Virus record (IMG/VR): IMGVR_UViG_3300031234_000003
Reading direction: 5' to 3' (one strand)
Origin: an uncultured virus (IMG/VR IMGVR_UViG_3300031234_000003)
Taxonomy: Duplodnaviria > Heunggongvirae > Uroviricota > Caudoviricetes
Length of the DNA stretch: 20,000 nucleotides
The translations under genes were made by a program, and so were the position numbers. Positions 628 to 15,301 of this stretch are shown piece after piece. Below the pieces are notes generated by a model. That model was not told the origin of the DNA, ran no database searches, and was given only the letters and a program-made list of their open reading frames with translations. The first letter of the stretch is position 1; each line of letters opens with the position of its first letter.

Positions 628-933
628 ATGACCAAGATTAGCGAGCGCAAGACACGGCTGAGCTTCGAGACGGATGCCGAGATGCGGGGGTGGGGTAGCA
701 TCACCGTAGACAAGGAGAAGCGGAAGACACGACGTGTCCCCGTGACTCGGGCAATCATCGTGGACGTGGACAACGCATTCCACGGCACCGTGCGGTTGAA
801 GGGTACGCGGCAGACCTTCGACTTCTCGTGGGAGGGCTTGTTCCTGTGGGCGGTCGAGCAGAAGGTTATGAAGGAGCGTGCGGAGAAGAAGCGGCTGCGT
901 GACGCTAAGAAGAAAGGACGGTTTGTGCGGTGA
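628..933 (+). CDS. Small basic hypothetical protein (101 aa)
   Basis: ATG 628 has a strong SD and a promoter (the track's 490 start is unlikely). K/R-rich. Its 3' end overlaps the convergent giant ORF by 29 nt (905-933). Confidence 0.8.
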   Translation: MTKISERKTRLSFETDAEMRGWGSITVDKEKRKTRRVPVTRAIIVDVDNAFHGTVRLKGTRQTFDFSWEGLFLWAVEQKVMKERAEKKRLRDAKKKGRFVR

Positions 934-1285
934 CCTCAATGGGGGCGTTGTAGACAACGCTCCCATAAATTCTCAGGCTGTCTTGCCACGTACCCTTGCA
1001 GTTCTGCCATTCCTCATACAACTCATCTTCACTACGACCAAGCGTGTAGGTCAGAGGCTCAGCAACCGAGTTCTGGTCGGCCTCCAGCAACGCGGGGTTG
1101 AATGCACTGAGTGGTAACTTGATAACCTTGTATTCTTCCTCGGGTCCAATCTCTTCGGCAGCGGTCTCAGCGTAATACTCGGCGATCTCAGCGGTGCCCC
1201 ACCAGCTAGGCTCAGGCAGTACGCCGCCAGCACTCATGGCTCGATTGTAGTCCGTCATGCTCATGCCGTGGTAAAGGAACCCATC
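905..1285 (-). other. Segment 26 (aa 3758-3883): H-type ART-like module, paralog of segment 1
   Basis: DGFLYHG...SWWG...LPLSAFN...TWQDSLRIYGSVVY. Confidence 0.65.
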
Positions 1286-4200
1286 AGCCGCAGCGGTCAC
1301 ATAGCTTCGGGCTGGCTGTGCGTTGGGCGGGGTTGCTTCCTTCGCGTTGCAGGTATTCATCACAAACCACTCGGACTGCATACCCGGATAGTTGCTTTCA
1401 TCGGGGTGCGTTCGATTACGCCAAAGAACGATATCCTCCAGAGCGATACCTTGAATCTTGCCCACGGTCTGCCACACGATGCCCCGATGTCCGCCCGAGA
1501 ATCCCTTGGCGGTGTCGTAAGCTGCCGACCAAGACAACAGGTCTCGAAGATGTGGCTCCCACTTGGCGGGCTCGCGGTCGTCGCCCATGCGAATCTCTTC
1601 CCCACGATAGAGGCACTTTCGAGTAGTCGGCGGTACGAATGGCGTGAGTGATTTGACCAACTCAACCACTCGACCGGATGCCGCTGGGTTGTCCTCAAAG
1701 GCGTCGGCACACTGCACGTATTGACCGAAGTAGCCGTACAGCGCATCGTCCATGGCGATAGTGTAGCAAACCTTGTCGTACTTGCTACGAGGAAGATCGG
1801 CAGCGGTCACGGATCGGCCTAACGCTGGGAGTTCGACCTGAGCCTTGGGCTTGAGGCGGACTTCCTTCTCTTCGGGGAGAGTGACCCATGCCCTGAAGGT
1901 GTTAAGCCAGTCCACAGCGTTCGCTTTGATCTTACCCTCGAAGACCTCGATGCGGTGTTGATCGGGGTAGTCGATGTACTTATCTTCCGCAAAGTTCTCG
2001 GCAAACTTCCTATCCAAAGACCATGACCAACCGAAGGTGCTGTAGTCAATGTCATGACGCTCGTTGAAAACAGCCATGCCGCGATACACCGTGAGCGGGA
2101 ACTTTTGGGATTTCCAGAACGCCAACGCCTGATCGTACCAGCGTTTGCTTTCCTCGTCGCTGCCAAACATGAATTCGTCATCAGCCAAGGTGGATTCGTC
2201 CATCACCTGCTCGAAGGTTGGGAAGGCTGCCCCGAACTTCTCACCGGGCTTCCTGCCCTCGGTAGGGACGTAATCGTACTTGTGCATACCCGTGATCTTG
2301 ACCTTACCCAGATCGGCTGTAGGTACGAAGAACCCATCCTCCTTCTGGTCGGTGGTGATTGCCACGCCTTCGGGAACCTGTACTTCAATGATTGCCATCT
2401 GAGGTATTTGCTTCTTGTTTTCTTCCCACGAATTCTCTGGCTGCATGTTGCGTGTGAAGAGTTGACCCTCAGCGTAGGCGGCGTAAGCCTCGGAGTATTT
2501 CAAATCGTCGTAAAAGTAGATGCCGTCGCGTCCCTGCGGAGCGTAGTAGTTCTTCCACATACCTTGATCCACGGGCTTGAAGCCGTGAGCTTTGATGTCT
2601 TTGGCAATAGGCACTGTCGTGACGTGATAGAGCTTGAGGGCTCGGGCTGGTGTGGCTGCGGTCAACGCCTTTGCTTTACCGCCGCCGATCCTAATCTGGT
2701 CGGCTGAAAACACGCAATAGCTATACTTGCCGTTGTACTCATCCACCATGGTGCTGTCGTAGCCGCGTTCCTTCATGCGGTTGACGGCTTCCTGATTGTC
2801 CAAAATGTTCCAATCGAGGCCGTTCTGCTTCACAATCTCGTTGAGCCAGTTGCCTTCTGGGTCTACATCGATGGCAAAGGCTCCCAGTTCAATCGTCTTG
2901 ACGGAATTGCCTTGCAAGTCGGAATAGCCGTCACTCATACATAGCTCGCAGATGTAAGTCAGGTCGGCGATCTGTTTCTTGCTCAGATTGTATTGATCTT
3001 CTTGCCGAATCAGTGGCTTCTTCATCTTCAAGTAGCAGGTCATGACGTTTGAGCCGAACTCTTTCGCTTCCTCAGGGTCATCGGTGAAGAAGAACCCACC
3101 AGCTTGTACCTTAATCTCGGAGAAGAGAATGTATCGGGTGCCGGGTTTCTGCTCGAACTTGTCGAATTTCTTATCGGTGCCGTGATACACAGGACCCACT
3201 TCACCGCGAGCAGCGAGCTTTCGGGAGACTTTCCCCCGTGGCTCCTCGTAATCTCGTAGGTCCACGACCTTGCACTTGAGCAAGATGCCGAGCTTCATGG
3301 CGGCGTTTGCGCGGTGGTTGCCGTCGTACAGCCAATCGCCTTCGGTGGTGCGGCACACGAGGGGGTACAACTGCTCCGTGTCACTCAGCCCGACATTGCT
3401 GTGCGGCTTGGTGATCTCCTCGGGGTTGTCCAAGAAATACTGGAGGTCTTTCCGCTTGAGGGTCGCCTGATTCGTCTTCAGATCGGCTGGATGTAATTCT
3501 TCAAGTTGAGCTTCCTCGATCAAACGGTCACGCTCAAACAGACGCATGTGGCGGAAAGTCTCCATCACATCGGGACGTTCGGGGAAGACCTGAAGCATGT
3601 TCGGCATATCCCCGTCGTCGTCCGAAGCCGTCTTGGGCTTACCGAGAAGCTGCTCGATCTTCTTGCCGTCGCTCTTGAACAAACTGATGAGTCCCGGGTG
3701 GAAATCGCTGGCGTTATCCTTCACCATCTCCTGAATATCTACCCACGTGAACCATTCTAGACCCGTGGTTTCCCAGTGATGTTCGGACTGCGGGGCGAAG
3801 CGGAACTCCGTACCCACGGTGCCGAGGAAGTTGTGATAGGAAAAGCCGCCCTTTGAAAATACGTAAGCTGGGTGCATGGTGATGCCGCCCGTGAAGCCCG
3901 TCTCTTCCGTTAGTTCGGCCTTGGCACTGTCCGCGAGGCTCATCTTTGGCTTGACCGCTCCACCGATGGTGCCCCAGCAATTGCCGATGTGAACATCGGG
4001 TGACCGCCACGCGAGACAGATGCGACCAGTGGTGGTGCAGATCGGCAGCACGCCAGACGCGGCGTTACCCTCGCCCGCCCAGAAGCCCTCATTATTGAAT
4101 CCTTCGGCGATCTTCATCGACGCCGTTGCACCTTGAGCCTTCGCCCCAACGAAGTCTATGTCGCGGGCATAGACGTTATGGTCGGTGCCGCCCTTCGCCC

Positions 4201-7200
4201 ACTTGATCTCGTAGAACTTGTCAGCCCCACCGTGATACTGTTGTGCCACATCAGGCGGAATGCTGCGGATGTTCTTGATGACACCCTTCATCCCATCAGC
4301 CTTACGAGTGACCTTGGAGCCGATGTCACCCGGCTTAGACATGGCAGCGTCCACTTCATAGATGTGGCTCGCGTCAAACACACAAATCTGATCGCCGTCG
4401 AGCAGCTTGTACATGCCCTTGCCCTTGAACCATACGGCGTCAAACTGAGCCTTCAGGTGCTCGGTCATCGGCTTGGTCGCTTCCACGCGATTCTTCTTGG
4501 CGAGGTCCGCGTTGTAGCCCTGACTGATCCACCATTTCATCATGGTCTTCGGCACTCCGAAGTTGATGGTCTCCAGCCGTGGCACGTCGAGGTAGTAGGT
4601 CTTCATGCCCCGCGTGGTGCCGCCTGCGAACTGCTTGGCGATAGCCTTGGCGGTCGTGAAGTACACGCCGTAACCCAGATGGTGCACGGGGGCTGGGATG
4701 CCGTCATGGTAGGGTTGGTTACCTTCGTAACCGTGGGCAACGTCGCCCGATCCCGCGTCCCCGATGTAGACCTTGAAGCCCTCGTTCCCGATGTTCTCCT
4801 GCTTCTCCTCGGTGGTGCCATGGTAGACAGGGCCGAACATCTTGCGGTCAACGGCGTCCTGCTGGCTAATGCGGTTCATGGCGGCGAGCTTTGCCACGCC
4901 TGCCAGCTTCTTCATGAAGATGCCTGCGGTGCTGCTGTCGAACCATCGTGGCGGCGGGTCGATCACGTAGGGCTGGAACCCCAGACTGTTGTAGAAGGAG
5001 CTTAATTCCTTCCCAGAGAGCCCTGTGAGCGAATGAGCGAGCAAGAAGCACACTTGGGCACCCTGAGCCTTCGCTGCGTCGAGCACAGCCCCTACAAGCG
5101 CCCTGCCGAGCCCATTACGACGTGTCGCGACCTTGACGCTTACGGTGCCCAAAACGAAGGCTTTGTCGTAAATTCCAGCCCCACCTTTGGGTAAAGTGCT
5201 CCAATCAAACCACTTAACCAGCCCCTCGCGGTCTTCCATGGTGCCGGAAGCACTTCCATCGACGTGTTTGGCGGTAATTCGCCCGTCTGGTGCCGTGGTG
5301 ATCTTGATTTCTTCCTCAAACCCAGCCGTCTTGACGATCCGCCCACCATCGAAATACTTGATGGCGGTGATGTTCTGCCGAGAGATATCGCCCTCAATGC
5401 GACGGTACATGTCGCCTTCCTCGAAATGCTCCGGGTCAGGCTCGCTCTTGCCGTAATCCCAGATGAACTCGATCACGGCGTACTGGTCGCTGTCCGTCAC
5501 ACTCGCACCGTATTCCTTCGCCGCGAACTCCGCGATGGCGCACCAGATGTATTTCTTGCCGCCTGTCAGACGGTTGTCGCTCGCTTTCAGACCTTCCTTG
5601 TCGATCAGTTGAGCGGCCTGCCACGAGGTTCCGTGGTAGAAGACCTGAGGATCGTCTTCGTGAGCCGATGCCGCCACGCCCTTAGCCTTGGGCTGACCCT
5701 TGCGTGCGTCCACCACTTCATACTTGCTGCCGTACTTTGTATTCCACTGGCTGAAGAAATCCTGCGGGATGGTGCCCCAGTGTAGAAGCATTCGAACTGG
5801 CGATGGGGTTGCCCGCACTTCAAGGTCCCGAACTTCTACGAGAGCGAGAATGTGGTTTGACCCGCTGAAGCCAATCGGCTCATTGATGCGGGAGGTGTTA
5901 ATGTTGTATGTCTGGCTTCCTTCAGTGTTCGGACGGGCTAGGAGCCGCAATGTACGGGTGACCTTCTCTGCCGCTTCGCGGAACGCCGCCTCTCCCTCGG
6001 ACGCATCGGGGAGTATGGTGTTCATGTCGGGGCGTTGTTTCTCCTTAGGGGTGCCGTAGAAGACTTGATCCCATGCCCGAATGTAGGAGTAGTTGTCCTT
6101 GACGTGACCCGCCGCACGGGTGACGGCACCTAGCCACACGCTGGGTAGGAGCTTCTCAAGCTCAGCCTTCAGTTCGGGATGGAATGGCATCTTACGTTCA
6201 GCGAACTTGGCTTCCCATTGCGTGAAACACTTGCGGACGTAATCTTCCCGCATCACCCTGATCTCATCCTGCCAGTCTTGGGTTGCGCCTTCCTGTGTAG
6301 CTGCCAAGTAGTAGCAGAGAACGTGGAAGGTGTTATCGCTCATGTGCTTGATTGGAGCACCGAGAACCCCCGTAACGTTGTCCTCGTCAAGGTACATGGT
6401 GTTCGGCTGAAGCTCCATGATAACCACGAGCGAGCCGCCGCGAGCCTTTCTATCCTCGGTATCGGGGGCTCCCGCAGCCGTCATGAGGTTCTGTGACACG
6501 TAAATGCCGCCGTAAGATTGACGGCTGGGTGCGGATATCCCAGCATCAGGATCGTCTGCCCAAACCTTTTCCGTACCTTCAGGAACTAACCCCTGACTCA
6601 TGATGCTTCGCAGATTCTTGATGCTGGTGCCGTGATACCAGATGGACTTCGGTGCGGCGGTCTTGACTTGACGCACGACCTTGAGCGGTCCCATGTGAGC
6701 GGCCTTGCCACTGAGTTCGATGATTGCACGAGCGAGCTTGGGGTCATTCTTGACGATGTAGTCGGTCAGATACTTCATCTGCTCCGCAAGCTCTGCCGAG
6801 CCCTCGAACTCGATCTCGCCCCATGCTTTCCACGCTTCCTCGAAGTTTTTGTAGACCGGGAACTTCTCGGGCTCATTGTAGGAAGCATTCTCGTCATTCC
6901 ATTGCTTGAGCCACAAAGCCTTAACTCGCTTGGCTTGGGCGGAACCCTTGGCGTTCAACTCACCACCACGGTCATTGAGGAGTTCGTAAACATCGTCCTC
7001 ATCGGGCAGGAGCTTACTGATGTCAGGAGCGGCTACCTCAAGCACGGGTCCGCCGCGCTCGATAGCGTACTGGTTTGCTACGTCGAACTCTGCGATGTAT
7101 ACCGCCCCGTCACGCGGGATGTCGATGTCGTAGGTGGTCTCCTGATCTGGGCGTAGGTAACCATCCCCCATGATAATCTCGGCATTTTTCGTGGACGTGC

Positions 7201-10200
7201 CGTGATACCACTTCTTCGGCATGGCGGCGGTCACACCGATTGCTTTCGACTCCGCTGGGATCGATAGGGCGTAGTGGGGATATGTCTTTTTGAACAGGTC
7301 TACCACGTCGTTAGGTATCAACTCGTTTGTGGGGGTTGCCAAGGTCACGGTTTTCTGATCCACGTCGATCACCGCGTAGCCCCGTAGTACCTCTTCGTAC
7401 TTCCGCCCAGAGGACATGCCCTCACCCATAGTTCTCGCTATCAGTGTTGCATGAGGGCCTATGCTTCCCTTCTGCGAGAACGCGCCATAGTCAGGGTGGT
7501 AAATCCACTTTTCATTCCGCTTCTCATTCAGGCTGCCGATCTTACTCTTGAACACCTTGAAGTGGTCCGCAGGTAGTGGCTTTGTCAGTACAACCGTGCC
7601 GGGGAATGCCTTCTCGCTAAAGTTCAATTCTCTCTCAATGGTGTCCTCAGTGCCGTCCTCAGGATCAACTTCGAGATACGACATCGGGATGTTACGGACC
7701 TCAAGGATGGTGTCGCACCCCTTCTCATTGGCGAACCACTGAGCATTCTCAGGGAAGTTCGTGAGATAGAGGTACTGCGGCTGTCCAGCGTTCCCGCCCG
7801 ATGAGACTTGATTCGGCCCCCAGCCGTTCTTCATGATGGCTTCAGCGTTCTCGGGGCAGGTGCCATGGTACAGCGTAGGCGCTGTGGTGCCTGCATACTT
7901 GACAAACTGCTTCGGTTCCCAGTAAAGCTTCCAGTGGTCTTCGTACTTGCCGCTCAGTTCGCACAACGACTCACCCGGCTTCTCAACCTTGAGGACGGTG
8001 GTCTCTGCGACAGGCATCTTGTCGAACGTGAAGTAAACCTTCTCGTTCATCAGGACTGGCGGACGGCTTCGGAATGCCCAGAACTCCAGATTGTGCGCGG
8101 GCGGCTCGTCCCAGAAATGACCACGGGTTTCTTTCGGCACTTCGATGAAGAACGCAAACTTGGCGATATCTGACGATTTTCTGACGATACCTGACGATAA
8201 CGACCAGTGGGGTTTACGGGGTTCCAACTTCATAATCACGGCTGGAATAGTCGTTTTGCCCATCTTCTTAGCCGCACGGGTGCGGTGATGCCCCTCTTCC
8301 AAGTAGTATTTCCCCGGCTGGTCTTCGTACTCATCTACGAGGATGGCTTCGAACCACTTCTCCGCTTCCATCTGCGTGTGAATCTCGTCCACACGTCTGT
8401 CAGTTGTCCATTGCTCGCCCTGCGTTTCCACCACATCGGCGACGTTGATGAATTTCTGCTCGATTCCCTTCAGTTTCCGAACGAACGATGCGGGCAGCAT
8501 GTGTTCCTTGACTGGATCGGCACTGAAATCAATGTTCCAGCCCTGCCACTCACCTACACCCTGCTCAGACTTGTACTGTACGTTGGCTCGGTTGGGATTA
8601 AACATTCCCATCTTTGCCGACGCAGCGTCCTTACTGGCTTTGAGGCCGTTCTTTAGGATATCGTCGAGGTTCTCCGCTGCCGTGCCGTGGTAGAACTTCG
8701 GCATCTTCCGTGCGGCTTCCTTCTCATCGGAGAACAACGGCGGGTCGAACATCAGAGGGAAGTCCTGTCCGCCGATGCCCTTCTGACCACGCAAAGGCAG
8801 GTTCTTGGATTCGTCGCCGTATGCCATGACCCTTTTCTGAGCGGGCTTCTTATAGCCTTGCCCGTAATCGATACCAATCAATTGAAGCTCAGCGCCCGAC
8901 TCAATTGTGATCTCATTTTCATCTTCGTTGAGCATGTTAGCAAGAAGAGTCGCGTCCCAGTCCACATCGGTTGAGCGTAGTACCTTGGCTTTGAGGATCA
9001 AGGTTTGAGGATGTTTCGGGTGCGGACCACCTTGATCCCACATTGACCCCGAGCCAAAGTACGCATCGGCACTGTTCTCAACCCACGTCCAATAGACGCC
9101 CGCCTTTTCCAAATTCGGTTGCGTGCCCTGCTCAACTTGAACCGCACGATAGATCGTGATGGGGAAGTCCACTGTGCTGAAGTGGGCGACATTCTCGTCG
9201 TAGCGGTACTCAGCCTCGTTGAAATCGTCTGGCTGGTACATCGGATTCGCGTCACACCAGTTGTCGAACGGCATGGGCTTGAAGTTCTGCGCTGCCGCAC
9301 GGACTGTGCGAAGGTTCTTTGGCGGATTCTTCCACGCCTTCTCACCTTTGTATTTGTAGCCCGTGATCTGGATTTCTTCACCCGGATGAATGTTGATCTC
9401 CCGCTCATCGGCTGCCACGAGGTTCACGTAGGCAGTGCGAATCCAGTCGATCTGCTTGGGCGAACTCACGACGCCACGCAGGATTACGATGTGCGGGTGC
9501 CCAGCAGCGAGTTCTTCGTGCACATAGGCGTTATTCTCGTCGTAGGACCAATAGATGCCAGTCCCCTTCTCCGCGTATTGACCCTTGTTGATTTCCTTAA
9601 GGCTCACCGAGCCCAGCCCACGGTAAACCGTGAGGGGGAACTTCAGGGATTGAAGGCGATTCATAGTGATTTCCCATGTCGCCCCGAGCCACTCCCAGCC
9701 GATCTTGTCGAGCCACACTTCCTGCTCAGCCTCGGGCATCTTCTCCCAATCCTTGCCTTCGGCTTTCGCACGTCCAGCGGCTTCGGACCTGATCTTATCC
9801 CAATCGCCCTGTGCCTCGCTGAGGCTACCACCCCAAGCAACCACGTCCTGTAAATCAAGATCGTACACGCTGCCCGCTCCCGTCTTGAACAGGTCGGGTG
9901 AAAGCGATTCAAGCGACGGCAGGTCTTCCACACCCATCACACGCTCGGGGATGTCGGCGTAAGCATTCGTCTCCTCGCCCATCTCGGGATTCCTGTACTG
10001 CGTGTCGCTCATCGGCGGCGTCTTGTGGGATGCTGACTTTCGCGGCTTACCGAAAGGTACTCGAACCTGACCACCACCCTTCGTACTCAGGGTGATGCTG
10101 TCCACTTGGAAGGAAATGCCCTCGGCCCAATCCATTCCCTCATATTTGGCGGCAGCGTCAGGCTTGACGTAGGCAAGGGTCACGTGCGGTACGTAGGGAA

Positions 10201-12556
10201 AATCATCTTTGCGGGTGCCCATCGCTTCTGCGACCTTGTTGTGGAGAGCCTCAAGTTCGGGAGCGTGACACTGAACCACGATGGGGGCTTGGGCGTCAGA
10301 GCTTTCGCTCACGGAGAATACGTGCGTCTTCCCTAGCGTGACCGTAAACGGTTGCTGCTCGCCTACAACTTGACTCAACAGAGCGGGGTCGGGCTTTACC
10401 CCGTACTTAACTGTGATGTGTGGATCGTCCTCACGACCATCCTTGCCGAGTTCCTCATCTGGAATCTGCTTGGCGGCTTCCATCATCCCGGAGGCGGCAT
10501 CAGGCGGCAGGTTGATTTGAGACGTGGCGTTTTTGTGGGGACCTGACTTGGCTTTCTTTGCTGCCTCAATGTCGGCTTCATCCTGAGCGGCGGAACAACC
10601 GAACTTCGCCATCGGAGCATTCGCCCAAAGGTCCTGAATTTTCTGCTCCTGCTCTGGGGTGCGGGGCAGATTCCATCCGCCGTATTGTTTGATACGCCCA
10701 CGCCCACGAGTAAACACGTGGTCGTTCGTTTTGACCAGCTTGAATTCTCCCGAAGTCCAATCGAGTCCATCGAGGTACGCCATAGCCTGACGGCTGAGCC
10801 CCAGCGCCCATTGCCAGCCCAAACGTTGCTTGTGCCGACCGTAGACGTAGTTATTGAGCAGGAGCCAGTATTCTTTCGTTGGCTCATCGCTGATGACACT
10901 CTGATCGGAGAACTCGGTCACGAAGTCCGCTCCGTACTTCGCATTGAAGCGAGCGGCGACGGCCTGCCATTCTTTGCCGTGTCCCTCGGGTGCGAGTAGC
11001 TTTTTGTATTTGTTGTAGGCGTCGAACCCGACTTCCATGAGTTTCGGCTTCCCAATAAGCAGAGCCACTTCATGATGACACAGTTCGTGAGCGATAGTAC
11101 GGCGAAGCGATTCCTCGTGCCCCAGTATGGACTTCTGAATGCCGATTGTGGTGTTGTCCGCACCCCAAGTGTTACCCGCCTCATCCCTACCCCGTTCCCA
11201 CACATCGTACCCCAGCATACGGTTGGTCTGGTTTACGATCTTGACTTCGGGATGCGGGAGCCCGGAAGCGAGCACGCCCATCATTTCGTTAATGATGTTC
11301 TTGACCTGACCGATATCGGCGGCGGTTTTCTGTGCCGCAACCTTGGGATTCATGATGCCCATTATCATCAGTTCCCCGCCGTAGACCGAGGCAACCTGCT
11401 CAAAGTCGTTGCGTTCGTACCACTCCACCAAATTGAAGCCTTGGGCTTGTTCCTCAGCGGTGTCGGCAACCAACAGACAGATGCCCGCACCGCGATCCCC
11501 GGCTTCTCGCAAGAACTCGGCAAGCAGATAGTCCCCGTAGCCCTTGCCACGGGAATCCTCGTATACGTTGATGTTGTTTAGAACGGCGAAGGTGTCATAC
11601 TTCTTCCGCAGGTCGGCAACAAACTCTTTGTTCGTGTAGCCGAAACGGTCGAGCCAATTCTGGAGTTGTTCCGCATTGGTGTCCGCTGTGTACCCTTCTG
11701 CGGAACCCTGATCTTCCGAGATGTTGATTTCCCGTACCGAAGAGGATGCCAGTTTGCTGAACGTCTCGATTTGGCTCTGCGGCACCATGATTTGAACCTT
11801 TGGGTAACCCTGATCGCGGAGCACGGAGAAGCGGTGCCGACCGTTGGTGAAATGCGCCTCACCACCCGCATTGTCGCTCCACGACACAATAGGAGCCTCA
11901 ACTGGGGTGTTGGGGTTGTCCTGCCGCCACTGGGTAAAGCGAGCGTAGCGGTCGCCGATGTGATTGGTTTTATCCCCCGGAGCGAGGTACAGGTGTTTGT
12001 CCTTCGACCACTCGCGATCTAACTTTTGCGTATCAACCCAAACTAGCTCGTAGTCTTCGAGCTTCCTATCCGATGGTTGGGTGAACTTAAGCGGCGGCAA
12101 CTCGGTTGCGGTCTTGCTCGCCATAACCTGCCGACCTTCGATAGCATCGGCTGGTGTGACGGGCATATCCTCATCGTACATGACCGCTCCCCAAATCTTC
12201 AGCGAATCCATCCACGTCTTCTTGCTCGCCTTCCACGCACGATTCGTGGCGTTCATTTTCTTCTGATCGTAATCCCCGTTCTCGTCTTCCATGAAATACG
12301 GGTCTTGAATCATGTTCTCGTCAGGGAGTAGAAAGGCTTCGTTGAACCTGCTAACGGGCAGCCGTAACATGGCCCCGCCCTCATACATGTCCGCCGTCTC
12401 CCTCACGCCCCAATAGCTGTGCCCCTCCACCTTCCCTTCGGTCAGGATGGACTTGAGGTCTCGTAACGTGGTGCCGTGATAGAGAAAGCCGTCTGTCTCA
12501 AAGAATGAGGTCGTGGTCGCGGGCTGTTTGGCTATCTTCCGAAGCAATGGGTTCAT
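905..12556 (-). CDS. Giant multidomain effector (polyvalent-type) protein, 3883 aa, about 26 linker-delimited segments including 14 ART-like modules
   Basis: Uninterrupted 11.65-kb ORF with AGGA 7 nt upstream of the ATG. Repeated YHGT and YR[GA]..W[ST]..ExE motifs, plus HELCH, HxT/HxT, G[RHN]HR, GNAT and Nudix motifs. Confidence 0.95.
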   Translation of the reverse strand: MNPLLRKIAKQPATTTSFFETDGFLYHGTTLRDLKSILTEGKVEGHSYWGVRETADMYEGGAMLRLPVSRFNEAFLLPDENMIQDPYFMEDENGDYDQKKMNATNRAWKASKKTWMDSLKIWGAVMYDEDMPVTPADAIEGRQVMASKTATELPPLKFTQPSDRKLEDYELVWVDTQKLDREWSKDKHLYLAPGDKTNHIGDRYARFTQWRQDNPNTPVEAPIVSWSDNAGGEAHFTNGRHRFSVLRDQGYPKVQIMVPQSQIETFSKLASSSVREINISEDQGSAEGYTADTNAEQLQNWLDRFGYTNKEFVADLRKKYDTFAVLNNINVYEDSRGKGYGDYLLAEFLREAGDRGAGICLLVADTAEEQAQGFNLVEWYERNDFEQVASVYGGELMIMGIMNPKVAAQKTAADIGQVKNIINEMMGVLASGLPHPEVKIVNQTNRMLGYDVWERGRDEAGNTWGADNTTIGIQKSILGHEESLRRTIAHELCHHEVALLIGKPKLMEVGFDAYNKYKKLLAPEGHGKEWQAVAARFNAKYGADFVTEFSDQSVISDEPTKEYWLLLNNYVYGRHKQRLGWQWALGLSRQAMAYLDGLDWTSGEFKLVKTNDHVFTRGRGRIKQYGGWNLPRTPEQEQKIQDLWANAPMAKFGCSAAQDEADIEAAKKAKSGPHKNATSQINLPPDAASGMMEAAKQIPDEELGKDGREDDPHITVKYGVKPDPALLSQVVGEQQPFTVTLGKTHVFSVSESSDAQAPIVVQCHAPELEALHNKVAEAMGTRKDDFPYVPHVTLAYVKPDAAAKYEGMDWAEGISFQVDSITLSTKGGGQVRVPFGKPRKSASHKTPPMSDTQYRNPEMGEETNAYADIPERVMGVEDLPSLESLSPDLFKTGAGSVYDLDLQDVVAWGGSLSEAQGDWDKIRSEAAGRAKAEGKDWEKMPEAEQEVWLDKIGWEWLGATWEITMNRLQSLKFPLTVYRGLGSVSLKEINKGQYAEKGTGIYWSYDENNAYVHEELAAGHPHIVILRGVVSSPKQIDWIRTAYVNLVAADEREINIHPGEEIQITGYKYKGEKAWKNPPKNLRTVRAAAQNFKPMPFDNWCDANPMYQPDDFNEAEYRYDENVAHFSTVDFPITIYRAVQVEQGTQPNLEKAGVYWTWVENSADAYFGSGSMWDQGGPHPKHPQTLILKAKVLRSTDVDWDATLLANMLNEDENEITIESGAELQLIGIDYGQGYKKPAQKRVMAYGDESKNLPLRGQKGIGGQDFPLMFDPPLFSDEKEAARKMPKFYHGTAAENLDDILKNGLKASKDAASAKMGMFNPNRANVQYKSEQGVGEWQGWNIDFSADPVKEHMLPASFVRKLKGIEQKFINVADVVETQGEQWTTDRRVDEIHTQMEAEKWFEAILVDEYEDQPGKYYLEEGHHRTRAAKKMGKTTIPAVIMKLEPRKPHWSLSSGIVRKSSDIAKFAFFIEVPKETRGHFWDEPPAHNLEFWAFRSRPPVLMNEKVYFTFDKMPVAETTVLKVEKPGESLCELSGKYEDHWKLYWEPKQFVKYAGTTAPTLYHGTCPENAEAIMKNGWGPNQVSSGGNAGQPQYLYLTNFPENAQWFANEKGCDTILEVRNIPMSYLEVDPEDGTEDTIERELNFSEKAFPGTVVLTKPLPADHFKVFKSKIGSLNEKRNEKWIYHPDYGAFSQKGSIGPHATLIARTMGEGMSSGRKYEEVLRGYAVIDVDQKTVTLATPTNELIPNDVVDLFKKTYPHYALSIPAESKAIGVTAAMPKKWYHGTSTKNAEIIMGDGYLRPDQETTYDIDIPRDGAVYIAEFDVANQYAIERGGPVLEVAAPDISKLLPDEDDVYELLNDRGGELNAKGSAQAKRVKALWLKQWNDENASYNEPEKFPVYKNFEEAWKAWGEIEFEGSAELAEQMKYLTDYIVKNDPKLARAIIELSGKAAHMGPLKVVRQVKTAAPKSIWYHGTSIKNLRSIMSQGLVPEGTEKVWADDPDAGISAPSRQSYGGIYVSQNLMTAAGAPDTEDRKARGGSLVVIMELQPNTMYLDEDNVTGVLGAPIKHMSDNTFHVLCYYLAATQEGATQDWQDEIRVMREDYVRKCFTQWEAKFAERKMPFHPELKAELEKLLPSVWLGAVTRAAGHVKDNYSYIRAWDQVFYGTPKEKQRPDMNTILPDASEGEAAFREAAEKVTRTLRLLARPNTEGSQTYNINTSRINEPIGFSGSNHILALVEVRDLEVRATPSPVRMLLHWGTIPQDFFSQWNTKYGSKYEVVDARKGQPKAKGVAASAHEDDPQVFYHGTSWQAAQLIDKEGLKASDNRLTGGKKYIWCAIAEFAAKEYGASVTDSDQYAVIEFIWDYGKSEPDPEHFEEGDMYRRIEGDISRQNITAIKYFDGGRIVKTAGFEEEIKITTAPDGRITAKHVDGSASGTMEDREGLVKWFDWSTLPKGGAGIYDKAFVLGTVSVKVATRRNGLGRALVGAVLDAAKAQGAQVCFLLAHSLTGLSGKELSSFYNSLGFQPYVIDPPPRWFDSSTAGIFMKKLAGVAKLAAMNRISQQDAVDRKMFGPVYHGTTEEKQENIGNEGFKVYIGDAGSGDVAHGYEGNQPYHDGIPAPVHHLGYGVYFTTAKAIAKQFAGGTTRGMKTYYLDVPRLETINFGVPKTMMKWWISQGYNADLAKKNRVEATKPMTEHLKAQFDAVWFKGKGMYKLLDGDQICVFDASHIYEVDAAMSKPGDIGSKVTRKADGMKGVIKNIRSIPPDVAQQYHGGADKFYEIKWAKGGTDHNVYARDIDFVGAKAQGATASMKIAEGFNNEGFWAGEGNAASGVLPICTTTGRICLAWRSPDVHIGNCWGTIGGAVKPKMSLADSAKAELTEETGFTGGITMHPAYVFSKGGFSYHNFLGTVGTEFRFAPQSEHHWETTGLEWFTWVDIQEMVKDNASDFHPGLISLFKSDGKKIEQLLGKPKTASDDDGDMPNMLQVFPERPDVMETFRHMRLFERDRLIEEAQLEELHPADLKTNQATLKRKDLQYFLDNPEEITKPHSNVGLSDTEQLYPLVCRTTEGDWLYDGNHRANAAMKLGILLKCKVVDLRDYEEPRGKVSRKLAARGEVGPVYHGTDKKFDKFEQKPGTRYILFSEIKVQAGGFFFTDDPEEAKEFGSNVMTCYLKMKKPLIRQEDQYNLSKKQIADLTYICELCMSDGYSDLQGNSVKTIELGAFAIDVDPEGNWLNEIVKQNGLDWNILDNQEAVNRMKERGYDSTMVDEYNGKYSYCVFSADQIRIGGGKAKALTAATPARALKLYHVTTVPIAKDIKAHGFKPVDQGMWKNYYAPQGRDGIYFYDDLKYSEAYAAYAEGQLFTRNMQPENSWEENKKQIPQMAIIEVQVPEGVAITTDQKEDGFFVPTADLGKVKITGMHKYDYVPTEGRKPGEKFGAAFPTFEQVMDESTLADDEFMFGSDEESKRWYDQALAFWKSQKFPLTVYRGMAVFNERHDIDYSTFGWSWSLDRKFAENFAEDKYIDYPDQHRIEVFEGKIKANAVDWLNTFRAWVTLPEEKEVRLKPKAQVELPALGRSVTAADLPRSKYDKVCYTIAMDDALYGYFGQYVQCADAFEDNPAASGRVVELVKSLTPFVPPTTRKCLYRGEEIRMGDDREPAKWEPHLRDLLSWSAAYDTAKGFSGGHRGIVWQTVGKIQGIALEDIVLWRNRTHPDESNYPGMQSEWFVMNTCNAKEATPPNAQPARSYVTAAADGFLYHGMSMTDYNRAMSAGGVLPEPSWWGTAEIAEYYAETAAEEIGPEEEYKVIKLPLSAFNPALLEADQNSVAEPLTYTLGRSEDELYEEWQNCKGTWQDSLRIYGSVVYNAPIEVTAQTVLSS
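1286..1798 (-). other. Segment 25 (aa 3587-3757): R-S-E type ART-like module with a QxE motif
   Basis: LYRGE...LSWSAAYDTAKGF...QSEWFV (QSE at 1370-1378); ends in YVTAAA. Confidence 0.7.
1799..2224 (-). other. Segment 24 (aa 3445-3586): R-S-E type ART-like module, paralog of segments 7 and 8
   Basis: FPLTVYRG...GWSWSLDRKFAENFA...VDW...EEKEVRL; ends in SVTAA. Confidence 0.75.
2225..2653 (-). other. Segment 23 (aa 3302-3444): H-type ART-like module
   Basis: LYHVTTVPIAKDIKAHGFKP...GIYFYDD...AYA...IIEVQVP; ends in EKFGAA. Confidence 0.7.
2654..3208 (-). other. Segment 22 (aa 3117-3301): ART-PolyVal-like module
   Basis: VYHGTDKKFDKF...GFFFTDDPEEAKEFG..VMTCYLKMKKP...GYDS...YCVFSADQI, the pattern typical of ARTs in polyvalent proteins; ends in ALTAA. 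Confidence 0.8.
3209..3625 (-). other. Segment 21 (aa 2978-3116): ParB/Srx-like module
   Basis: LKTNQATL...PLVCR...WLYDGNHRANAAMKLG; ends in RKLAA. Confidence 0.8.
3626..4105 (-). other. Segment 20 (aa 2818-2977): Nudix-fold module with a degenerate Nudix box
   Basis: ASGVL...TGRICLAWRS...WGTIGG AVKPK M SLADSAK AELTEETGF ... ETTGLEWF ... FHPGL; ends in PKTA. Confidence 0.85.
4106..4879 (-). other. Segment 19 (aa 2560-2817): ART-PolyVal-like module plus a C-terminal SH3/KOW-like barrel
   Basis: VYHGT...GYGVYFT...AKQFA...FDAVWF...QICVFDASHI, then IGSKVTRKADGMKGVI...YEIKW (about 4148-4330); ends in MKIA. Confidence 0.7.
4880..5323 (-). other. Segment 18 (aa 2412-2559): GNAT acetyltransferase module
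   Basis: VSVKVATRRNGLGRALV...LSSFYNSLGF; ends in KKLAGVAKLAA. Confidence 0.8.
5324..5662 (-). other. Segment 17 (aa 2299-2411): H-type ART-like module
   Basis: FYHGTSWQAAQLIDKEGLK...YIW...AKEYG...VIEF...GDISRQNI; ends in VKTA. Confidence 0.75.
5663..6652 (-). other. Segment 16 (aa 1969-2298): H-type ART-like module with a long extension
   Basis: WYHGTSIKNLRSIMSQGLVP...GGIYVS...YLDED, followed by about 240 aa with no motif I recognise; ends in GVAASA. Confidence 0.7.
6653..7222 (-). other. Segment 15 (aa 1779-1968): H-type ART-like module with a helical insertion
   Basis: WYHGTSTKNAEIIMGDG...AVYIA...ANQYA...VLEV...LLPDED; ends in VKTAA. Confidence 0.7.
7535..7891 (-). other. Segment 13 (aa 1556-1674): H-type ART-like module
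   Basis: LYHGTCPENAEAIMKNGW...YLYLT...AQWFA...ILEV; ends in SKIG. Confidence 0.75.
7892..8152 (-). other. Segment 12 (aa 1469-1555): small beta-rich module, possibly ASCH/PUA/EVE-like
   Basis: EFWAFRSRPPVLMNEKVYFTFDKMPVAETTVLKV resembles the ASCH/PUA strand pattern; weak, by eye. Confidence 0.35.
8153..8605 (-). other. Segment 11 (aa 1318-1468): ParB/Srx-like module
   Basis: EAILVD...YYLEEGHHRTRAAKKMGKTTIPAVI; ends in AKFA. Confidence 0.8.
8606..8710 (-). other. Segment 10 (aa 1283-1317): truncated H-type ART remnant, 35 aa
   Basis: KFYHGTAAENLDDILKNGLKAS, then directly the AKMG linker; the rest of the fold is missing. Confidence 0.65.
8822..9289 (-). other. Segment 8 (aa 1090-1245): R-S-E type ART-like module, paralog of segment 7
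   Basis: FPITIYRA...GVYWT...VDW...DENEI; ends in RVMA. Confidence 0.7.
9290..9877 (-). other. Segment 7 (aa 894-1089): R-S-E type ART-like module
   Basis: FPLTVYRG...GIYWS...DEREI; ends in VRAAA. Confidence 0.7.
10031..10597 (-). other. Segment 5 (aa 654-842): 2H phosphoesterase module
   Basis: Two HxT motifs, PHITVKYG (10409-10420) and PHVTLAY (10175-10186), 78 aa apart; ends in RKSA. Confidence 0.85.
10598..11317 (-). other. Segment 4 (aa 414-653): SprT-like zincin metallopeptidase module
   Basis: TIAHELCH (HExxH at 11075-11089) followed by GHGKEW, as in SprT family proteins; ends in AKFG. Confidence 0.8.
11318..11746 (-). other. Segment 3 (aa 271-413): GNAT acetyltransferase module
   Basis: INVYEDSRGKGYGDYLL (acetyl-CoA motif A, RGxGxG) and LVEWYERNDF; ends in QKTAA. 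Confidence 0.8.
11747..12106 (-). other. Segment 2 (aa 151-270): ParB/Sulfiredoxin-like module
   Basis: APIV...FTNGRHRFSVLRDQG matches the ParB/Srx (D/N)GxHR motif; ends in SKLA. Confidence 0.7.
12107..12556 (-). other. Giant protein segment 1 (aa 1-150): H-type ART-like module, paralogous to the last module
   Basis: DGFLYHGT...SILTEG...SYWG; ends in SKTA. Confidence 0.65.
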
Positions 12557-12585: not shown

Positions 12586-13128
12586 TCAACGGCGGGACTT
12601 CTTCTTTTTCGCCAGTTTATAGCCCCTTTTGAGGGCTCGTTTGACCGACCTTGAGGGCGGTGTATCGCGGCGAATTGCGATGAGCGGGGTCACAGTAGGC
12701 CAGTATTCAACGCGGACGACCTTGCGGTTCAGGGGCTTTTGAGTCTTGGTTTCCTCATCAAGATAGGTAGTTTGGATGGCACAGATACCCATCATCACGT
12801 CTTGAGAATCCTGCGACTGCTCACAGTCAACTTCGCTGAACTGGGCGTCGTTGGCGTTCGGGTGGGTGTGAATGGTGCCGAGGTAAGTCAACCCGATCTC
12901 GGCTGCGTCCTCTTCATGTTCATCGATCTCGTAATCCTCGTACCGAAGGGTGCGTTTTCCGGGCTTGTGATCGACCTTCACAAAGGCATGAATGTAGAGG
13001 ATATCGCTGCGTACTTTGCCCCACAGGGCTTCCATGTATTCCAATGGGTAATGATTCAGGGCTCGGCGACGGAACTTCGCCTCCTCCTTCTTATCGACCA
13101 CAATGCGGGTGAAGGGTGCGACTGCCAT
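12586..13128 (-). CDS. JAB/MPN (JAMM) domain metalloprotease
   Basis: N-terminal glutamate in YPLEYMEALWG and LGTIHTHPNANDAQFSEVD (HxH-x8-S-x2-D, about 12826-12870). Basic C-terminal tail. Starts 6 nt after the stop of the upstream gene. Confidence 0.85.
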   Translation of the reverse strand: MAVAPFTRIVVDKKEEAKFRRRALNHYPLEYMEALWGKVRSDILYIHAFVKVDHKPGKRTLRYEDYEIDEHEEDAAEIGLTYLGTIHTHPNANDAQFSEVDCEQSQDSQDVMMGICAIQTTYLDEETKTQKPLNRKVVRVEYWPTVTPLIAIRRDTPPSRSVKRALKRGYKLAKKKKSRR

Positions 13129-13134
13129 GATGAC

Positions 13135-15021
13135 TTATTTTTCCTTTGTTGCCTCGGCTTTCAACTGTTGAGCAAGAGCTATAACCTCACTGCGGTTTGG
13201 CAGAACCCACAGCGTGCTGACTGGTTTACCCGGAGCAAGTCTCTCCATGGCCTCACGAATGTAATGCGTCTCACTCGCGGGCGATTCCTCGGGCTTGTGA
13301 TACCCAGCAGCTTCCCATGCTTTGCGGTACTTCTCATCGTCGGGCTTTTCCCAACGCGCTTTCCTGAGCGTCTCCGTGGCTTTCATGTAAATCGACCACA
13401 GGGATGTCTTGCTTCCAACAATAGCTCTGACAGCCGTCTCAATGTCGCCTACGGTCAGGGAGGCAGTCTTTCCCATCGACCGGGCTTTGAGACTCGTTGC
13501 CAAAGCTGCTGCAATTTCAAACCGAAGGCTTTCATCCGTGCGACCTTCGATGGCGAACTGAAGCTTTTCAAGCTCCCGTTCCCCTTCCTGCACTAACTTA
13601 TTCAGGTTGCTCAGAGTTTCGTGCTCTTCGGGCGTCAATCCGCCCTTTGTGGGCTTGTAAAGCAGGTCGTGCGTGACCTCGGCCCATGCGTGCATCAGGA
13701 CGGATGCTACCTGAATCTCGATCTGCGTGTCGGCGTACCGAAGCTCCTTCTTGCGGAGCGTCTCGGGGCGCAGGCGCACCAGATAGTGGGTTGCCGTGTA
13801 GCCCAGCGTATCGCCTTCCTCGGGCTTGCTGGCTTCGGGGAAGCTCTTTGGGGGTCGCACGGGGACGAATAACTTTTCAATGATCTGTCCAACCGCATCG
13901 CGGTCGGCTGGCATGTAAAGCGCCACACGGCAGCCAGCTAAATCGATGATGTCGTCGTCAATATCGCGGAACGTCTTATAGTTCCTCTTTTGATTTCGCT
14001 TGTACAGCTTTTTCCCCAGCCGATCTGGGGTCTTCGCACGGGAGCTAACCACCGCCTTGATCCCCGCATCCTGAAGAGCCTGATCCAATTTGTCCTGTAC
14101 GAGGTGCGCGACTTCATCGTAGAAGTCCACCTCGTGCTTGTAGTTCTTCAAAAAGGCTTCGATGACCGTGTACTTCTCACCGGCCGCTGTCAGAGCGATC
14201 ACATAACGGTTCTGCTTTTCATCATGCGTGACCGGATACCGTTTCTTGAGTCGGTCCCACGCTGGCTCAGCGGTAGCGGGGTCGCGTTGGTCATCCGACA
14301 GGAAATACTTCGCTCCTCGGCGCTTTACCTCGGCGATTGCCCGATCATAAATCTCCTGCCCCAGCCCGGTTTTCCGACGCTCCGGTGCGCTGATGAACTT
14401 TAGGCGATAGGCGGGCTCGCCTTTGTATCGGGTGCGGTATACGCTTGCACCACCCTGCCGCTCCCCGCTCGCGTCTAGACCGTTGATATCGAACATTGTC
14501 GAATCGCCCGTGATCCGCCACTGAAGGTCTTCGTTTGCAGCCTGCTTCTTGGCGGCGGCGTCCTTCTGTTTCGCCTTCACCGTGTCGAACAGGTACTCGA
14601 AATCGACCTCGGAGATGTCGCCCAGCAGTTCTTCGCCCGCTTGCCCAATGTACGCCTTTTCAGCTTCCTCTAGTGTGTCGAACCCCAGCATCACTTTGTA
14701 CTCGTCGAACTCTCCATCAGGTGTGTTTTGCTCAACAATGTAGGCATATTCGGCATCTTCGTTGGGACCCCTGTAGATGTCGAGATTCTCCTTATCCCCG
14801 GTTGCCGTCGTGTCGGGGATGTAGCCGTAATCGACTTTCATCTCTGTTTTGAACGACGTACCGTCAGGTTTCTTACCGACGCGGGTGCTTCCCTTCGGCC
14901 ACTCAATTATAACAGGGAGACCCCGAAATTCGGTAGAGTGTTCCTGTGGCAGCTTGTCGGCGATGACGATTTTCACGAAAATGCCCTGTTTTCTGTGGTT
15001 TTGGGGGTCTCTGGGTAACAC
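13135..15021 (-). CDS. Multidomain protein: inorganic pyrophosphatase (InPase-type) - GNAT - RelA/SpoT alarmone synthetase domain - unknown C-terminal domain
   Basis: InPase: IEWPKGS..DYGYIP..GDKENLDIY..DEYKVMLGF (14536-15021). GNAT: RRKTGLGQEIY (14182-14535). RelA/SpoT: RAK...K, DLAGCR, GYTATH, EIQV..HAWAEVTHDLLYK (13462-14181). Start is uncertain (GTG 15021 or GTG 14976). Confidence 0.9.
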   Translation of the reverse strand: MLPRDPQNHRKQGIFVKIVIADKLPQEHSTEFRGLPVIIEWPKGSTRVGKKPDGTSFKTEMKVDYGYIPDTTATGDKENLDIYRGPNEDAEYAYIVEQNTPDGEFDEYKVMLGFDTLEEAEKAYIGQAGEELLGDISEVDFEYLFDTVKAKQKDAAAKKQAANEDLQWRITGDSTMFDINGLDASGERQGGASVYRTRYKGEPAYRLKFISAPERRKTGLGQEIYDRAIAEVKRRGAKYFLSDDQRDPATAEPAWDRLKKRYPVTHDEKQNRYVIALTAAGEKYTVIEAFLKNYKHEVDFYDEVAHLVQDKLDQALQDAGIKAVVSSRAKTPDRLGKKLYKRNQKRNYKTFRDIDDDIIDLAGCRVALYMPADRDAVGQIIEKLFVPVRPPKSFPEASKPEEGDTLGYTATHYLVRLRPETLRKKELRYADTQIEIQVASVLMHAWAEVTHDLLYKPTKGGLTPEEHETLSNLNKLVQEGERELEKLQFAIEGRTDESLRFEIAAALATSLKARSMGKTASLTVGDIETAVRAIVGSKTSLWSIYMKATETLRKARWEKPDDEKYRKAWEAAGYHKPEESPASETHYIREAMERLAPGKPVSTLWVLPNRSEVIALAQQLKAEATKEK

Positions 15022-15062: not shown

Positions 15063-15301
15063 GGGGAGTTTAGGCTGGCATTGGTTATCAGAAATTTTTT
15101 CCGCATAGATTGTGACGGAACTTGGGTATTACAAAAATGTGGGAGACTGCACTCAAAACACGGCAGGCCAGCTCGCCCCCATCGGCATCGGCGCTATCAT
15201 TTACAAGTGGCTCCGCACTGGCTCTACGCTGTCCCTACGCTGGCGCACCATTTTTGCAACTACGTGTTGCTTAGATGAGTCTCTTCTCGGAGGAAATGTT
15301 C

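Follow-up and report, generated by a model that had tools for sequence, protein, structure and literature searches.

The stretch of DNA analysed here, referred to below as the window, comprises 20,000 nucleotides of an uncultured tailed virus (Caudoviricetes; IMG/VR record IMGVR_UViG_3300031234_000003), and all positions are numbered over that whole stretch. Three tightly packed genes lie on its minus strand, namely a gene for a giant protein of 3883 amino acids (aa) at 905-12556, a gene of 180 aa at 12586-13128 and the gene under study at 13135-15021, an open reading frame (ORF) of 628 aa when counted from the first GTG in the ORF list and its translation. An original prediction, made from the letters alone, had described the latter as a multidomain protein in which InPase, GNAT, RelA/SpoT and unknown domains are bounded by KKQAA, ALTAA and GKTA, and had proposed that such linkers form a processing signal shared with the giant neighbour. 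The ORF exists on the minus strand as described and every motif coordinate proved exact. In this report, we examine the domains of this protein, the joints between them and the other proteins in which the joint motif recurs; residue numbers follow the 628-aa ORF unless stated. The features of the locus are listed below with the evidence for each.

13135..14976, minus strand: the gene under study at its probable true extent of 613 aa (ORF list, database gene call P0004, homologue N-termini)
14956..14976, minus strand: conserved N-terminal heptad V/M-K-I-V-I-A-D, family consensus M-x-x-x-T-A-D-K-L-P (family alignment, list of N-termini)
14593..14940, minus strand: InPase (family-I pyrophosphatase-like) domain, aa 28-143 (Pfam PF18823)
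14536..14550, minus strand: junction 1, KKQAA, aa 158-162, left edge of the GNAT insert (sequence, homologue comparison)
14182..14535, minus strand: GNAT acetyltransferase module, aa 163-280 (ESM-Atlas structure; weak in Pfam)
14182..14196, minus strand: junction 2, ALTAA, aa 276-280, 5-6 residues ahead of the first synthetase helix (sequence)
13546..14166, minus strand: RelA/SpoT-type nucleotidyl/pyrophosphokinase core (small alarmone synthetase-like), aa 286-492 (Pfam, AlphaFold2, Foldseek, VIA)
13702..13719, minus strand: EIQVAS, aa 435-440, family-wide variant of the EIQxRT strand (family alignment)
13462..13473, minus strand: junction 3, GKTA, aa 517-520, the sole strict motif in the protein (GKTAS) (sequence)
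13138..13461, minus strand: C-terminal helical region of no recognised fold, aa 521-628 (AlphaFold2, Atlas, Pfam, PHROG)
12586..13128, minus strand: JAB/JAMM metallopeptidase gene between the two polyvalent genes (Pfam Prok-JAB, E 7.7e-8)
905..12556, minus strand: 3883-aa polyvalent protein with the same junction motif (Pfam domains, motif count, module boundaries)

The true start of the gene is probably the second GTG, at 14976, because the homologues and the database gene call (613 aa) begin M/V-K-I-V-I-A-D-K-L-P; the homologue N-termini all follow the pattern M-K-x-V-T-A-D-K-L-P. The N-terminal heptad is possibly a short leader ending in a variant of the joint motif. No nucleotide-level matches were found in the phage collection, and the surroundings of the gene showed neither tRNAs nor notable promoter or terminator signals.

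The InPase domain matches Pfam PF18823 with 105.6 bits (cut-off 26.8, E 2.3e-30) and carries the conserved motifs YGYIPxT, DxYxG and FDExK. Its profile also matches the C-terminal part of a PB1-type phage portal (PDB 9b41_L, E 5e-25), and the domain is 38-48% identical to the C-termini of proteins entered as portals or 'minor head protein'. In the AlphaFold2 (AF2) model of the full-length protein, which has a mean predicted local distance difference test score (pLDDT) of 79.9, the InPase is modelled at pLDDT 91-98; the Foldseek list for this model is filled by synthetase matches and does not cover the InPase.

The GNAT module scores 13.6 bits against PF00583 in Pfam, below the cut-off of 20.7 (E 0.084), and was recognised by structure. 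The ESM-Atlas model of aa 163-280 aligned with GNAT clusters at a template modelling (TM) score of 0.71-0.78 in 10 of 10 rows, nine of them named GNAT, with a feature score of 0.94, and the aligned range is the exact stretch between KKQAA and ALTAA. The AF2 model of this region is poor (pLDDT 51-74) because the underlying alignment holds no homologues of the insert. Homologues that are 95% identical to the protein (P0005 and others) are without the GNAT insert and are joined at junction 1; judged by these homologues, the GNAT is a recent insertion between InPase and synthetase.

The synthetase module matches RelA_SpoT (PF04607) over aa 327-458 with 43.6 bits (cut-off 27, E 4.1e-11). An AF2 model of aa 281-628 (mean pLDDT 85.4) gave a confident core at aa 281-492 (pLDDT 82-98), in which the first helix begins at residue 286. 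Foldseek matched the core to PDB 2be3 (E 1.4e-8), while VIA-align placed it closest to RelQ (5dec_B, Z 18.4, root-mean-square deviation (rmsd) 2.7 over 186 aa), followed by 2be3 (Z 17.8), RelP 6ewz (17.5), Rel (13.7), CapRel (12.6) and Tas1 (10.2). Over the RelQ/RelP structures as a whole, Z was 16.5-18.4 and rmsd 2.7-3.5 over 179-194 residues, with 17-20% identity, so that AF2, VIA and Foldseek together give the alpha/beta fold of a small alarmone synthetase (SAS). A profile of the family run against PDB at E up to 10 matched RelQ/RelP-type chains only and none of the toxic SAS (toxSAS) type. With the RelQ/YjbM equivalog model of NCBIfam (NF053588) the protein scored 20.8 bits, far from the cut-off of 320.

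The synthetase motifs named in the original prediction are all present and are invariant or nearly so in 120 family members: R328 and K330 (RxK), D360xxG363xR365, G407Y408xxxH412 and E435-I-Q437. We transferred the donor-site residues described for FaRel2 (PMC11782079) and SaRelP (PMC5794853) onto the protein by motif spacing. The equivalents of the donor and Mg residues (R328, K330, K338, K341/R342, D360, G363, R365, Y408, E435, Q437, H451) are kept, with full invariance or conservation of 90% or more in the same 120 members, the sole donor-site change being from Ser to Arg334. Since these residues are kept, the module looks like an active ATP-dependent pyrophosphokinase. The canonical EIQxRT, as seen in the alignments of 2be3 and 3l9d, is replaced by EIQVAS at aa 435-440, again as predicted. 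Conservation of A439 and S440 is at least 90% over the 120 sequences and complete in a set of 64, and on the family alignment EIQVAS is a trait of the whole family, members without InPase included, and not decay. No account of the role of Arg-Thr in EIQxRT turned up in the excerpts of literature searched.

Beyond the core, aa 493-580 are modelled as helical with low confidence (pLDDT 52-74), whereas aa 581-628 reach pLDDT 89-97 and the last 48 residues form three confident helices. The C-terminal region gave no Pfam or PHROG match, and in the Atlas its TM score was at most 0.40 to anything.

With InPase, a GNAT fold and RelA_SpoT in one ORF, the protein holds two or more effector domains in a single chain. 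It is encoded by a phage: the virus record carries TerL, viral contigs of 155-463 kb carry related loci, and the nearest cultured relative is Tunturiibacter phage Tunturi 5, a 309-kb Acidobacteriota jumbo myovirus (PMC11924767). Such proteins were defined as the polyvalent class by Iyer, Burroughs, Anand, de Souza and Aravind in 2017 (PMC5512222), whose list of modules includes InPase, RelA/SpoT, GNAT, ADP-ribosyltransferase (ART), 2H, NUDIX and ParB-like modules, and the present protein is almost certainly a polyvalent effector with the domains described.

Among the 120 homologues listed, 97 contain InPase and RelA_SpoT, 22 RelA_SpoT only and one InPase only. Their architecture is that of a fixed frame (InPase, synthetase and C-terminal helices) with variable modules between the parts, and the inserts differ among homologues, from none to an ART-like module, small unknown domains and others. 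The homologues without InPase are 41-45% identical to the protein, and the similarity reaches into its C-terminal region.

The joint motif was analysed with a strict pattern, K-[T/V/I/L]-A-[A/S/G/D], which was defined on the family of the protein and then fixed and applied to other proteins. Of the 61 distinct linkers that precede the synthetase, 34 end in K-[VITLMF]-A-[ADEGS], as against 1.2 on average and 7 at most over 2000 shuffles; a further 16 end in a looser x-x-A-small form and four in K-x-G-small. A second copy often stands at the left edge of the inserted module, for example in homologues P0071, P0026, P0039 and P0157, so that the insert is bracketed, as by EKVAA...KIAAD in P0071, KVAA...LNAA/LNAG in P0026 and P0039 and KKQAA...ALTAA in the present protein. 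The left flank carries the strict motif in only 5 of 16 insert-bearing linkers, and KKQAA and ALTAA are themselves looser variants of it.

The same motif is enriched in the giant neighbour, which holds 13 copies against 2.67 expected (0 of 2000 shuffles) and in which TAA is the fourth most over-represented tripeptide. ALTAA and KTA, which had been noted as junctions there, do occur in it, the former at aa 3297-3301 and the latter five times. Giants of related loci are also enriched, with 9 copies against 2.15 at locus L009 and 7 against 0.80 at L026 (each 0 of 1000 shuffles). We then compared the ends of BLAST blocks in the giant with a broader form of the motif, and 10 of 32 boundaries coincided with it against 4.5 expected (12 of 5000 randomisations).

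The GNAT module gave access to unrelated contexts. An exhaustive search found it in 74 proteins, many of them giants, where a word-based search had found the present protein only, and its flanks in unrelated contexts include PKTAS|PDFGY and EVKVAA|LS. In 32 large proteins of unrelated context that share the GNAT, the motif copies sum to 119 against 30.9 expected, and 12 of the 32 are individually significant (at most 5 of 500 shuffles). Over 155 motif instances the core is K-T-A-[A/S], with T at P2 in 89 and A or S after the Ala in 120, and with mild preferences for Ser at -3 and Pro at +2. The codons of the motif vary between instances, which places selection at the level of the protein.

The motif recurs in the head proteins of the phage group. 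Head genes were located only via the annotated record of Tunturi 5, whose major head protein (gp334) has the strict motif QKLAA|S at aa 26-29 and whose head maturation protease (gp331) has it near both ends, at aa 33 and 265. There are three copies in the acidic scaffold-like gp332, four in the portal gp7 (one at aa 65), three in the 'DNA ejection protein' gp328, two in gp345 and five in gp348. Proteins of Tunturi 5 in which the motif does not occur include the sheath, three tail fibres of >1100 aa, the tail terminator, RecT, a 1423-aa DNA polymerase and TerL. A 186-kb contig (G001) with a 100% identical copy of the gene under study and three complete relatives of 332-463 kb (G002-G004) encode a Tunturi 5-type protease (61-64% identity) and capsid protein (72-74%); PHROGs names the protease homologue head maturation protease (phrog_18299, E 6e-15) and the capsid homologue major head protein (phrog_2522, E 4e-43). 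All five capsid proteins begin M-A-N/Q-L-S-R-T-Q-Q-Q-T-x-M-L-G-Q-L-L-K-T-A-G-G-R-Q-K-L-A-A-S, with two motifs in 30 residues, and in the protease homologues x-K-x-A-[AS] occurs close to the N-terminus and again some 30 residues before the C-terminal end. The motif thus lies where substrates of a prohead protease would carry it, in the capsid N-terminus, protease, scaffold and portal of Tunturi 5 and in the capsid and protease of G001-G004.

Within the 186-kb contig, 132 of 164 ORFs have no motif, and six ORFs with 16% of the residues hold 41 of the 76 copies, these being the capsid protein, three giants, a 678-aa ORF and the ORF that immediately precedes the protease gene. The giants begin with leaders of the form M-N-P-L-L-Q-K-x-T-A-A (more broadly M-N-P-L-L-Q/R-K-...-A-A) or M-S-L-L-D-K-K-A-A (the first 17 codons, for the gene at 905-12556 in the window) that resemble the capsid N-terminus, and this short leader may be a capsid-targeting propeptide.

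Several motif-rich ORFs of these genomes were recorded in passing. They are a 1968-aa ORF (G001:C1:94599-100505; 7 motifs, 1.4 expected), a 551-aa ORF directly upstream of the head protease (G001:C1:78599-80254; 3 against 0.4) and, near TerL, ORFs of 1944 aa (L004:12018-17852, minus strand; 11 against 1.8), 678 aa (L005:10825-12861, minus strand; 5 against 0.7) and 1115 aa (L004:8696-12043, minus strand; 4 against 1.1). The 1944-aa ORF has three tandem ...EGKTADYAEG... repeats and an N-terminus that matches a 'DarB-like antirestriction' protein of Tunturi 5. Pfam, PHROGs and PDB sequence searches gave no identity for the 678-, 1115- and 1944-aa ORFs, and tblastn ties two of the three to gp348 and the 'DarB-like' gp350 of Tunturi 5. 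A supposed Lon-type protease at genome positions 26214-27416, for which an A-x-A specificity like that of birnavirus VP4 had been considered, was rejected, as NCBIfam makes it a ClpB/ClpA-type AAA+ module with no protease domain; it is a 400-aa ClpB/ClpA-like AAA+ D2 module (L002:14215-15417, plus strand) that PHROGs labels 'ATP-dependent protease'.

On this evidence we propose that the protein is the precursor of head-packaged effectors, which would be cut at K-x-A joints by the head protease and injected in parts. The precursor would be incorporated into the prohead of a soil jumbo phage related to Tunturi 5, where the phage's own head-maturation protease would recognise K-[T/V/I/L]-A followed by A/S/G/D (core K-T-A-A/S) and cut it during maturation, alongside the capsid propeptide, the scaffold, the portal and the 3883-aa neighbour. 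The enzymes so released would enter the next host together with the ejected DNA, and the synthetase would there transfer pyrophosphate from ATP to a 3'-OH acceptor, which would most probably be a purine nucleotide, to give a (p)ppGpp- or (p)ppApp-like alarmone. The head protease would be the most likely reader of the motif because it is found in head proteins but not in tail or replication proteins. We place this reading as a whole somewhat above an even call. The joint motif is quite probably a proteolytic site, and the head protease as the enzyme that cuts it stands at an even call; packaging, cleavage, protease identity and enzymatic product are what we infer from the features above.

A number of observations weigh against this proposal. 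The motif is low in information, at about four residues, and the homologues compared are related, so that conservation counts such as the 34 of 61 linkers are not independent events. Seven of the 61 linkers are without any motif-like sequence, 8 of the 32 giants that share the GNAT are without the motif, and among the giants of related loci those of L012 (224 of 1000 shuffles) and L013 (535 of 1000) are not enriched and that of L010b has no motif at all. With the strict motif, the test of block boundaries in the giant neighbour is weak (6 of 32 against 3.2 expected; 309 of 5000 randomisations). The protein itself holds one strict motif, GKTAS, against 0.61 expected, and the statistical support rests on the family and the neighbouring proteins because of this. 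KKQAA lies inside a predicted long helix (aa 141-171) over which pLDDT falls from 93 to 67. GKTA, in a coil (aa 516-523) between two helices, is kept in the family as G-[KRHQL]-x-A-[STK], and the insertions that homologues have after the synthetase fall about 20 residues downstream of it; by this comparison, GKTA marks a conserved loop and no point of insertion. The conserved core of InPase, synthetase and C-terminus suggests that its parts may act jointly and not as separate enzymes, and the catalytic strand has AS in place of RT. The head protease has no match to a Pfam family, and searches of five related records with Pfam S78, S77, PF07068 and PF05065 gave no match, although the S77 and PF07068 controls were also unmatched. 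Virion packaging we infer only from InPase relatives fused to portals, from 'minor head protein' annotations and from the motif; the paper on Tunturi 5 makes no mention of mass spectrometry.

The original prediction of a shared processing signal therefore survives in part. The signal is enriched, conserved at the level of the protein, brackets swapped modules and recurs in head proteins, whereas the protein alone is not enriched in it and, of the three boundaries proposed, KKQAA and ALTAA flank the GNAT but GKTA marks no boundary of an insert. ALTAA lies in a stretch (aa 262-281) with pLDDT below 50. Cutting of all three joints in this protein is less certain than the existence of the code.

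If the motif is not a cleavage site, it may be a conserved element of linkers or of helix caps, may mark proteins for the capsid or for ejection or may simply arise from the recombination of modules, and the protein would act as an uncut multi-enzyme. The helical setting of KKQAA, the core kept as a unit in 97 of the 120 homologues listed and the low information content of the motif all fit such an account, and the virion RNA polymerase of N4 and some plasmid polyvalent proteins are delivered uncut (PMC5512222). It is set back by the varying codons, which mean that the motif is not DNA microhomology, by the placement of the motif in the first 30 residues of the capsid protein, near both ends of the protease and in the acidic scaffold-like protein, which fits cleavage better, and by its absence from large multi-domain tail fibres, which need linkers too. 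We regard an uncut protein as rather unlikely.

A second alternative concerns the product and not the joints. The synthetase could be toxSAS-like and act on tRNA 3' ends or another non-nucleotide acceptor, with a C-terminal cis-inhibitor that proteolysis at GKTA would remove. The acceptor is not readable from sequence because tRNA-targeting toxSASs carry no clear sequence signature according to a 2021 preprint (10.1101/2021.04.30.441581). CapRel, a fused toxin with a C-terminal regulator, aligns with the core at Z 12.6, and homologues without InPase are found as cargo in tail clusters of P2-like prophages, as defence genes often are; there is also a weak match to the PADLOC candidate PDC-S33 (E 1e-7). 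In fold the core stands clearly nearer to RelQ/RelP (Z 16.5-18.4) than to CapRel or Tas1 (10.2), no PDB chains other than those of RelQ/RelP type are matched by the family profile at E up to 10, and a block of translation would harm the infecting phage too. A toxSAS-like activity is in our view doubtful, and a nucleotide acceptor is favoured, on structural ranking only. The earlier suggestion that a phage-delivered alarmone synthetase could reprogramme the host stringent response is in this light plausible, with donor residues intact and the fold nearest RelQ/RelP on one side, and the failed equivalog model and an acceptor that sequence does not disclose on the other.

The homologues without InPase deserve a separate remark. 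Those with the synthetase and C-terminal parts (phrog_9640) lie as cargo in the P2-like clusters at L018:9998-11272, L020:9902-11323 and L021:9959-11278, and one of the InPase-less homologues sits between tail-fibre assembly and sheath genes. They match PDC-S33 weakly and may be a RelA/SpoT family of defence type.

The remaining alternative is raised by the gene between the two polyvalent genes. Its product matches PF14464 with 32.7 bits (cut-off 25), has the JAMM residues E33, H87, H89 and D101 invariant in 30 homologues and ends in a polybasic tail, KKKKSRR. In 11 of 13 related loci the slot between the polyvalent genes holds a small metallopeptidase, which is a JAB protein at six (L006, L007, L008, L010, L026, L031) and a stand-alone SprT-like zincin at five (L009, L011, L012, L013, L015; four of the five above the Pfam cut-off), while no peptidase was found in the slot of L014 and L016. 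The zincins at L009:11529-11927 and L013:11365-11763, for instance, have 132 aa. Tunturi 5 has a JAB homologue (by similarity judged by eye) in gp271, which bears the annotation 'minor tail protein' and is the upstream neighbour of the InPase gene.

It may be that the joints are cut by the JAB or SprT-like metallopeptidase, from the slot gene or from a SprT-like module within the giant, and not by the head protease. JAB could trim after T-A-A as deubiquitinases cut after G-G, and a SprT-like enzyme could be switched on by DNA in the filled head. The occupied slot at 11 of 13 loci, the position of gp271 next to the InPase protein, the invariant JAMM residues and the proposal that zincin peptidases process polyvalent proteins (Iyer et al. 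2017, PMC5512222) speak for this. The motif is enriched whichever peptidase is the neighbour (9 against 2.15 beside SprT at L009, 7 against 0.80 beside JAB at L026), it occurs also in capsid, head protease, scaffold-like protein and portal, which are classical head-protease substrates, and the SprT-like match inside the giant is below the Pfam cut-off (23.2 against 25.6 bits). The JAB protein, moreover, weakly matches defence-system JAB models (PADLOC, E 3.6e-4; TIGR02256, E 8e-4) and may be another effector. We consider cutting by these peptidases unlikely.

Equally unlikely is the most far-reaching form of our proposal, in which K-T-A|A/S would be a clade-wide code of the head protease that serves to trim the capsid protein as well, a cut at GKTA|S would remove a C-terminal cis-inhibitor and so arm, only in the capsid, a RelQ-like enzyme that is silent in the producing cell, and this enzyme would act jointly with the co-delivered InPase on a nucleotide outside the classical alarmones. 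Were it true, soil jumbo- and mega-phages would obtain at least two dozen free enzymes for injection from a handful of giant genes.

The other neighbours in the window are transcribed divergently from the gene under study. An exonuclease (phrog_284; 15275-16537, plus strand) and a stand-alone GNAT acetyltransferase (16561-17004, plus strand) adjoin it, and the exonuclease-InPase pair is syntenic with gp270/gp272 of Tunturi 5. The phage also encodes an M24 (methionine-aminopeptidase-like) peptidase (L001:4264-5010, plus strand) and an ADP-ribosylglycohydrolase (L001:7080-8099, plus strand), the second of which may have a link with the numerous ART modules in the giant protein.

No other pool of predicted phage counter-defence enzymes is as large as the polyvalent proteins, and it is unsolved how a single chain of 600 to 4000 residues gives rise to many working enzymes. 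A joint signal that such chains have in common with the capsid propeptide offers a testable answer for one clade; it would allow mature products to be predicted from sequence and module boundaries to be read directly, and the cultured phage Tunturi 5 makes it checkable. The proteins that combine a pyrophosphatase-like domain with a RelQ-like synthetase of altered catalytic strand form a conserved phage family, which is a candidate source of new nucleotide chemistry as infection begins.

PMC5512222 already describes polyvalent proteins as a class, lists InPase and RelA/SpoT among their modules and proposes that the units travel with the DNA and are set free by proteolysis, and head-protease motifs in ejection proteins of other jumbo phages are described in PMC10052503. 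Relative to the literature searched, itself in excerpt, what appears to be new is the motif, its link to the capsid propeptide in the Tunturi-5-like clade, the InPase-synthetase frame with swappable inserts and EIQVAS.

When compared with known systems, the protein agrees with the polyvalent proteins in having several unrelated effector domains in one phage polypeptide. The difference lies in the processing, where the 2017 paper proposes autoprocessing by a zincin metallopeptidase (MPTase) and gives no cleavage motif, 'linker' being nowhere in its text and 'cleavage site' only in the title of a reference (PMC5512222), whereas here a K-T-A-A/S joint signal is common to head proteins.

Substrates of the T4 head protease have a capsid-targeting leader and are cut at L/I-x-E. 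The prohead protease of SPN3US cuts capsid, portal and ejection proteins after AXE (PMC10052503). The present system resembles T4, SPN3US and phiKZ-like phages in that an N-terminal leader is followed by a consensus, that the motif is common to capsid, portal, protease and ejected proteins and that the cargo includes enzymes such as ADP-ribosyltransferases. Unlike theirs, the motif is K-x-A with a small residue, the protease matches no Pfam model and the predicted sites are not confined to the end of an N-terminal propeptide but also separate many enzyme modules of giant polyproteins.

As an enzyme, the synthetase shares with RelQ and RelP (5dec, 2be3, 6ewz) the fold and the ATP-donor, Mg and G-loop Tyr residues, and differs from them in EIQVAS, in a donor-site Arg for Ser, in its fusion to InPase and a long helical C-terminus and in being encoded by a phage. 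With the toxSASs (CapRel, FaRel2, Tas1) and the MuF-RelA/SpoT toxins, fusions that are thought to be delivered by the head (PMC5512222), it has in common the use of RelA/SpoT enzymes as weapons of mobile elements; its structural similarity to them is lower (CapRel Z 12.6, Tas1 10.2), and no antitoxin or MuF domain was seen.

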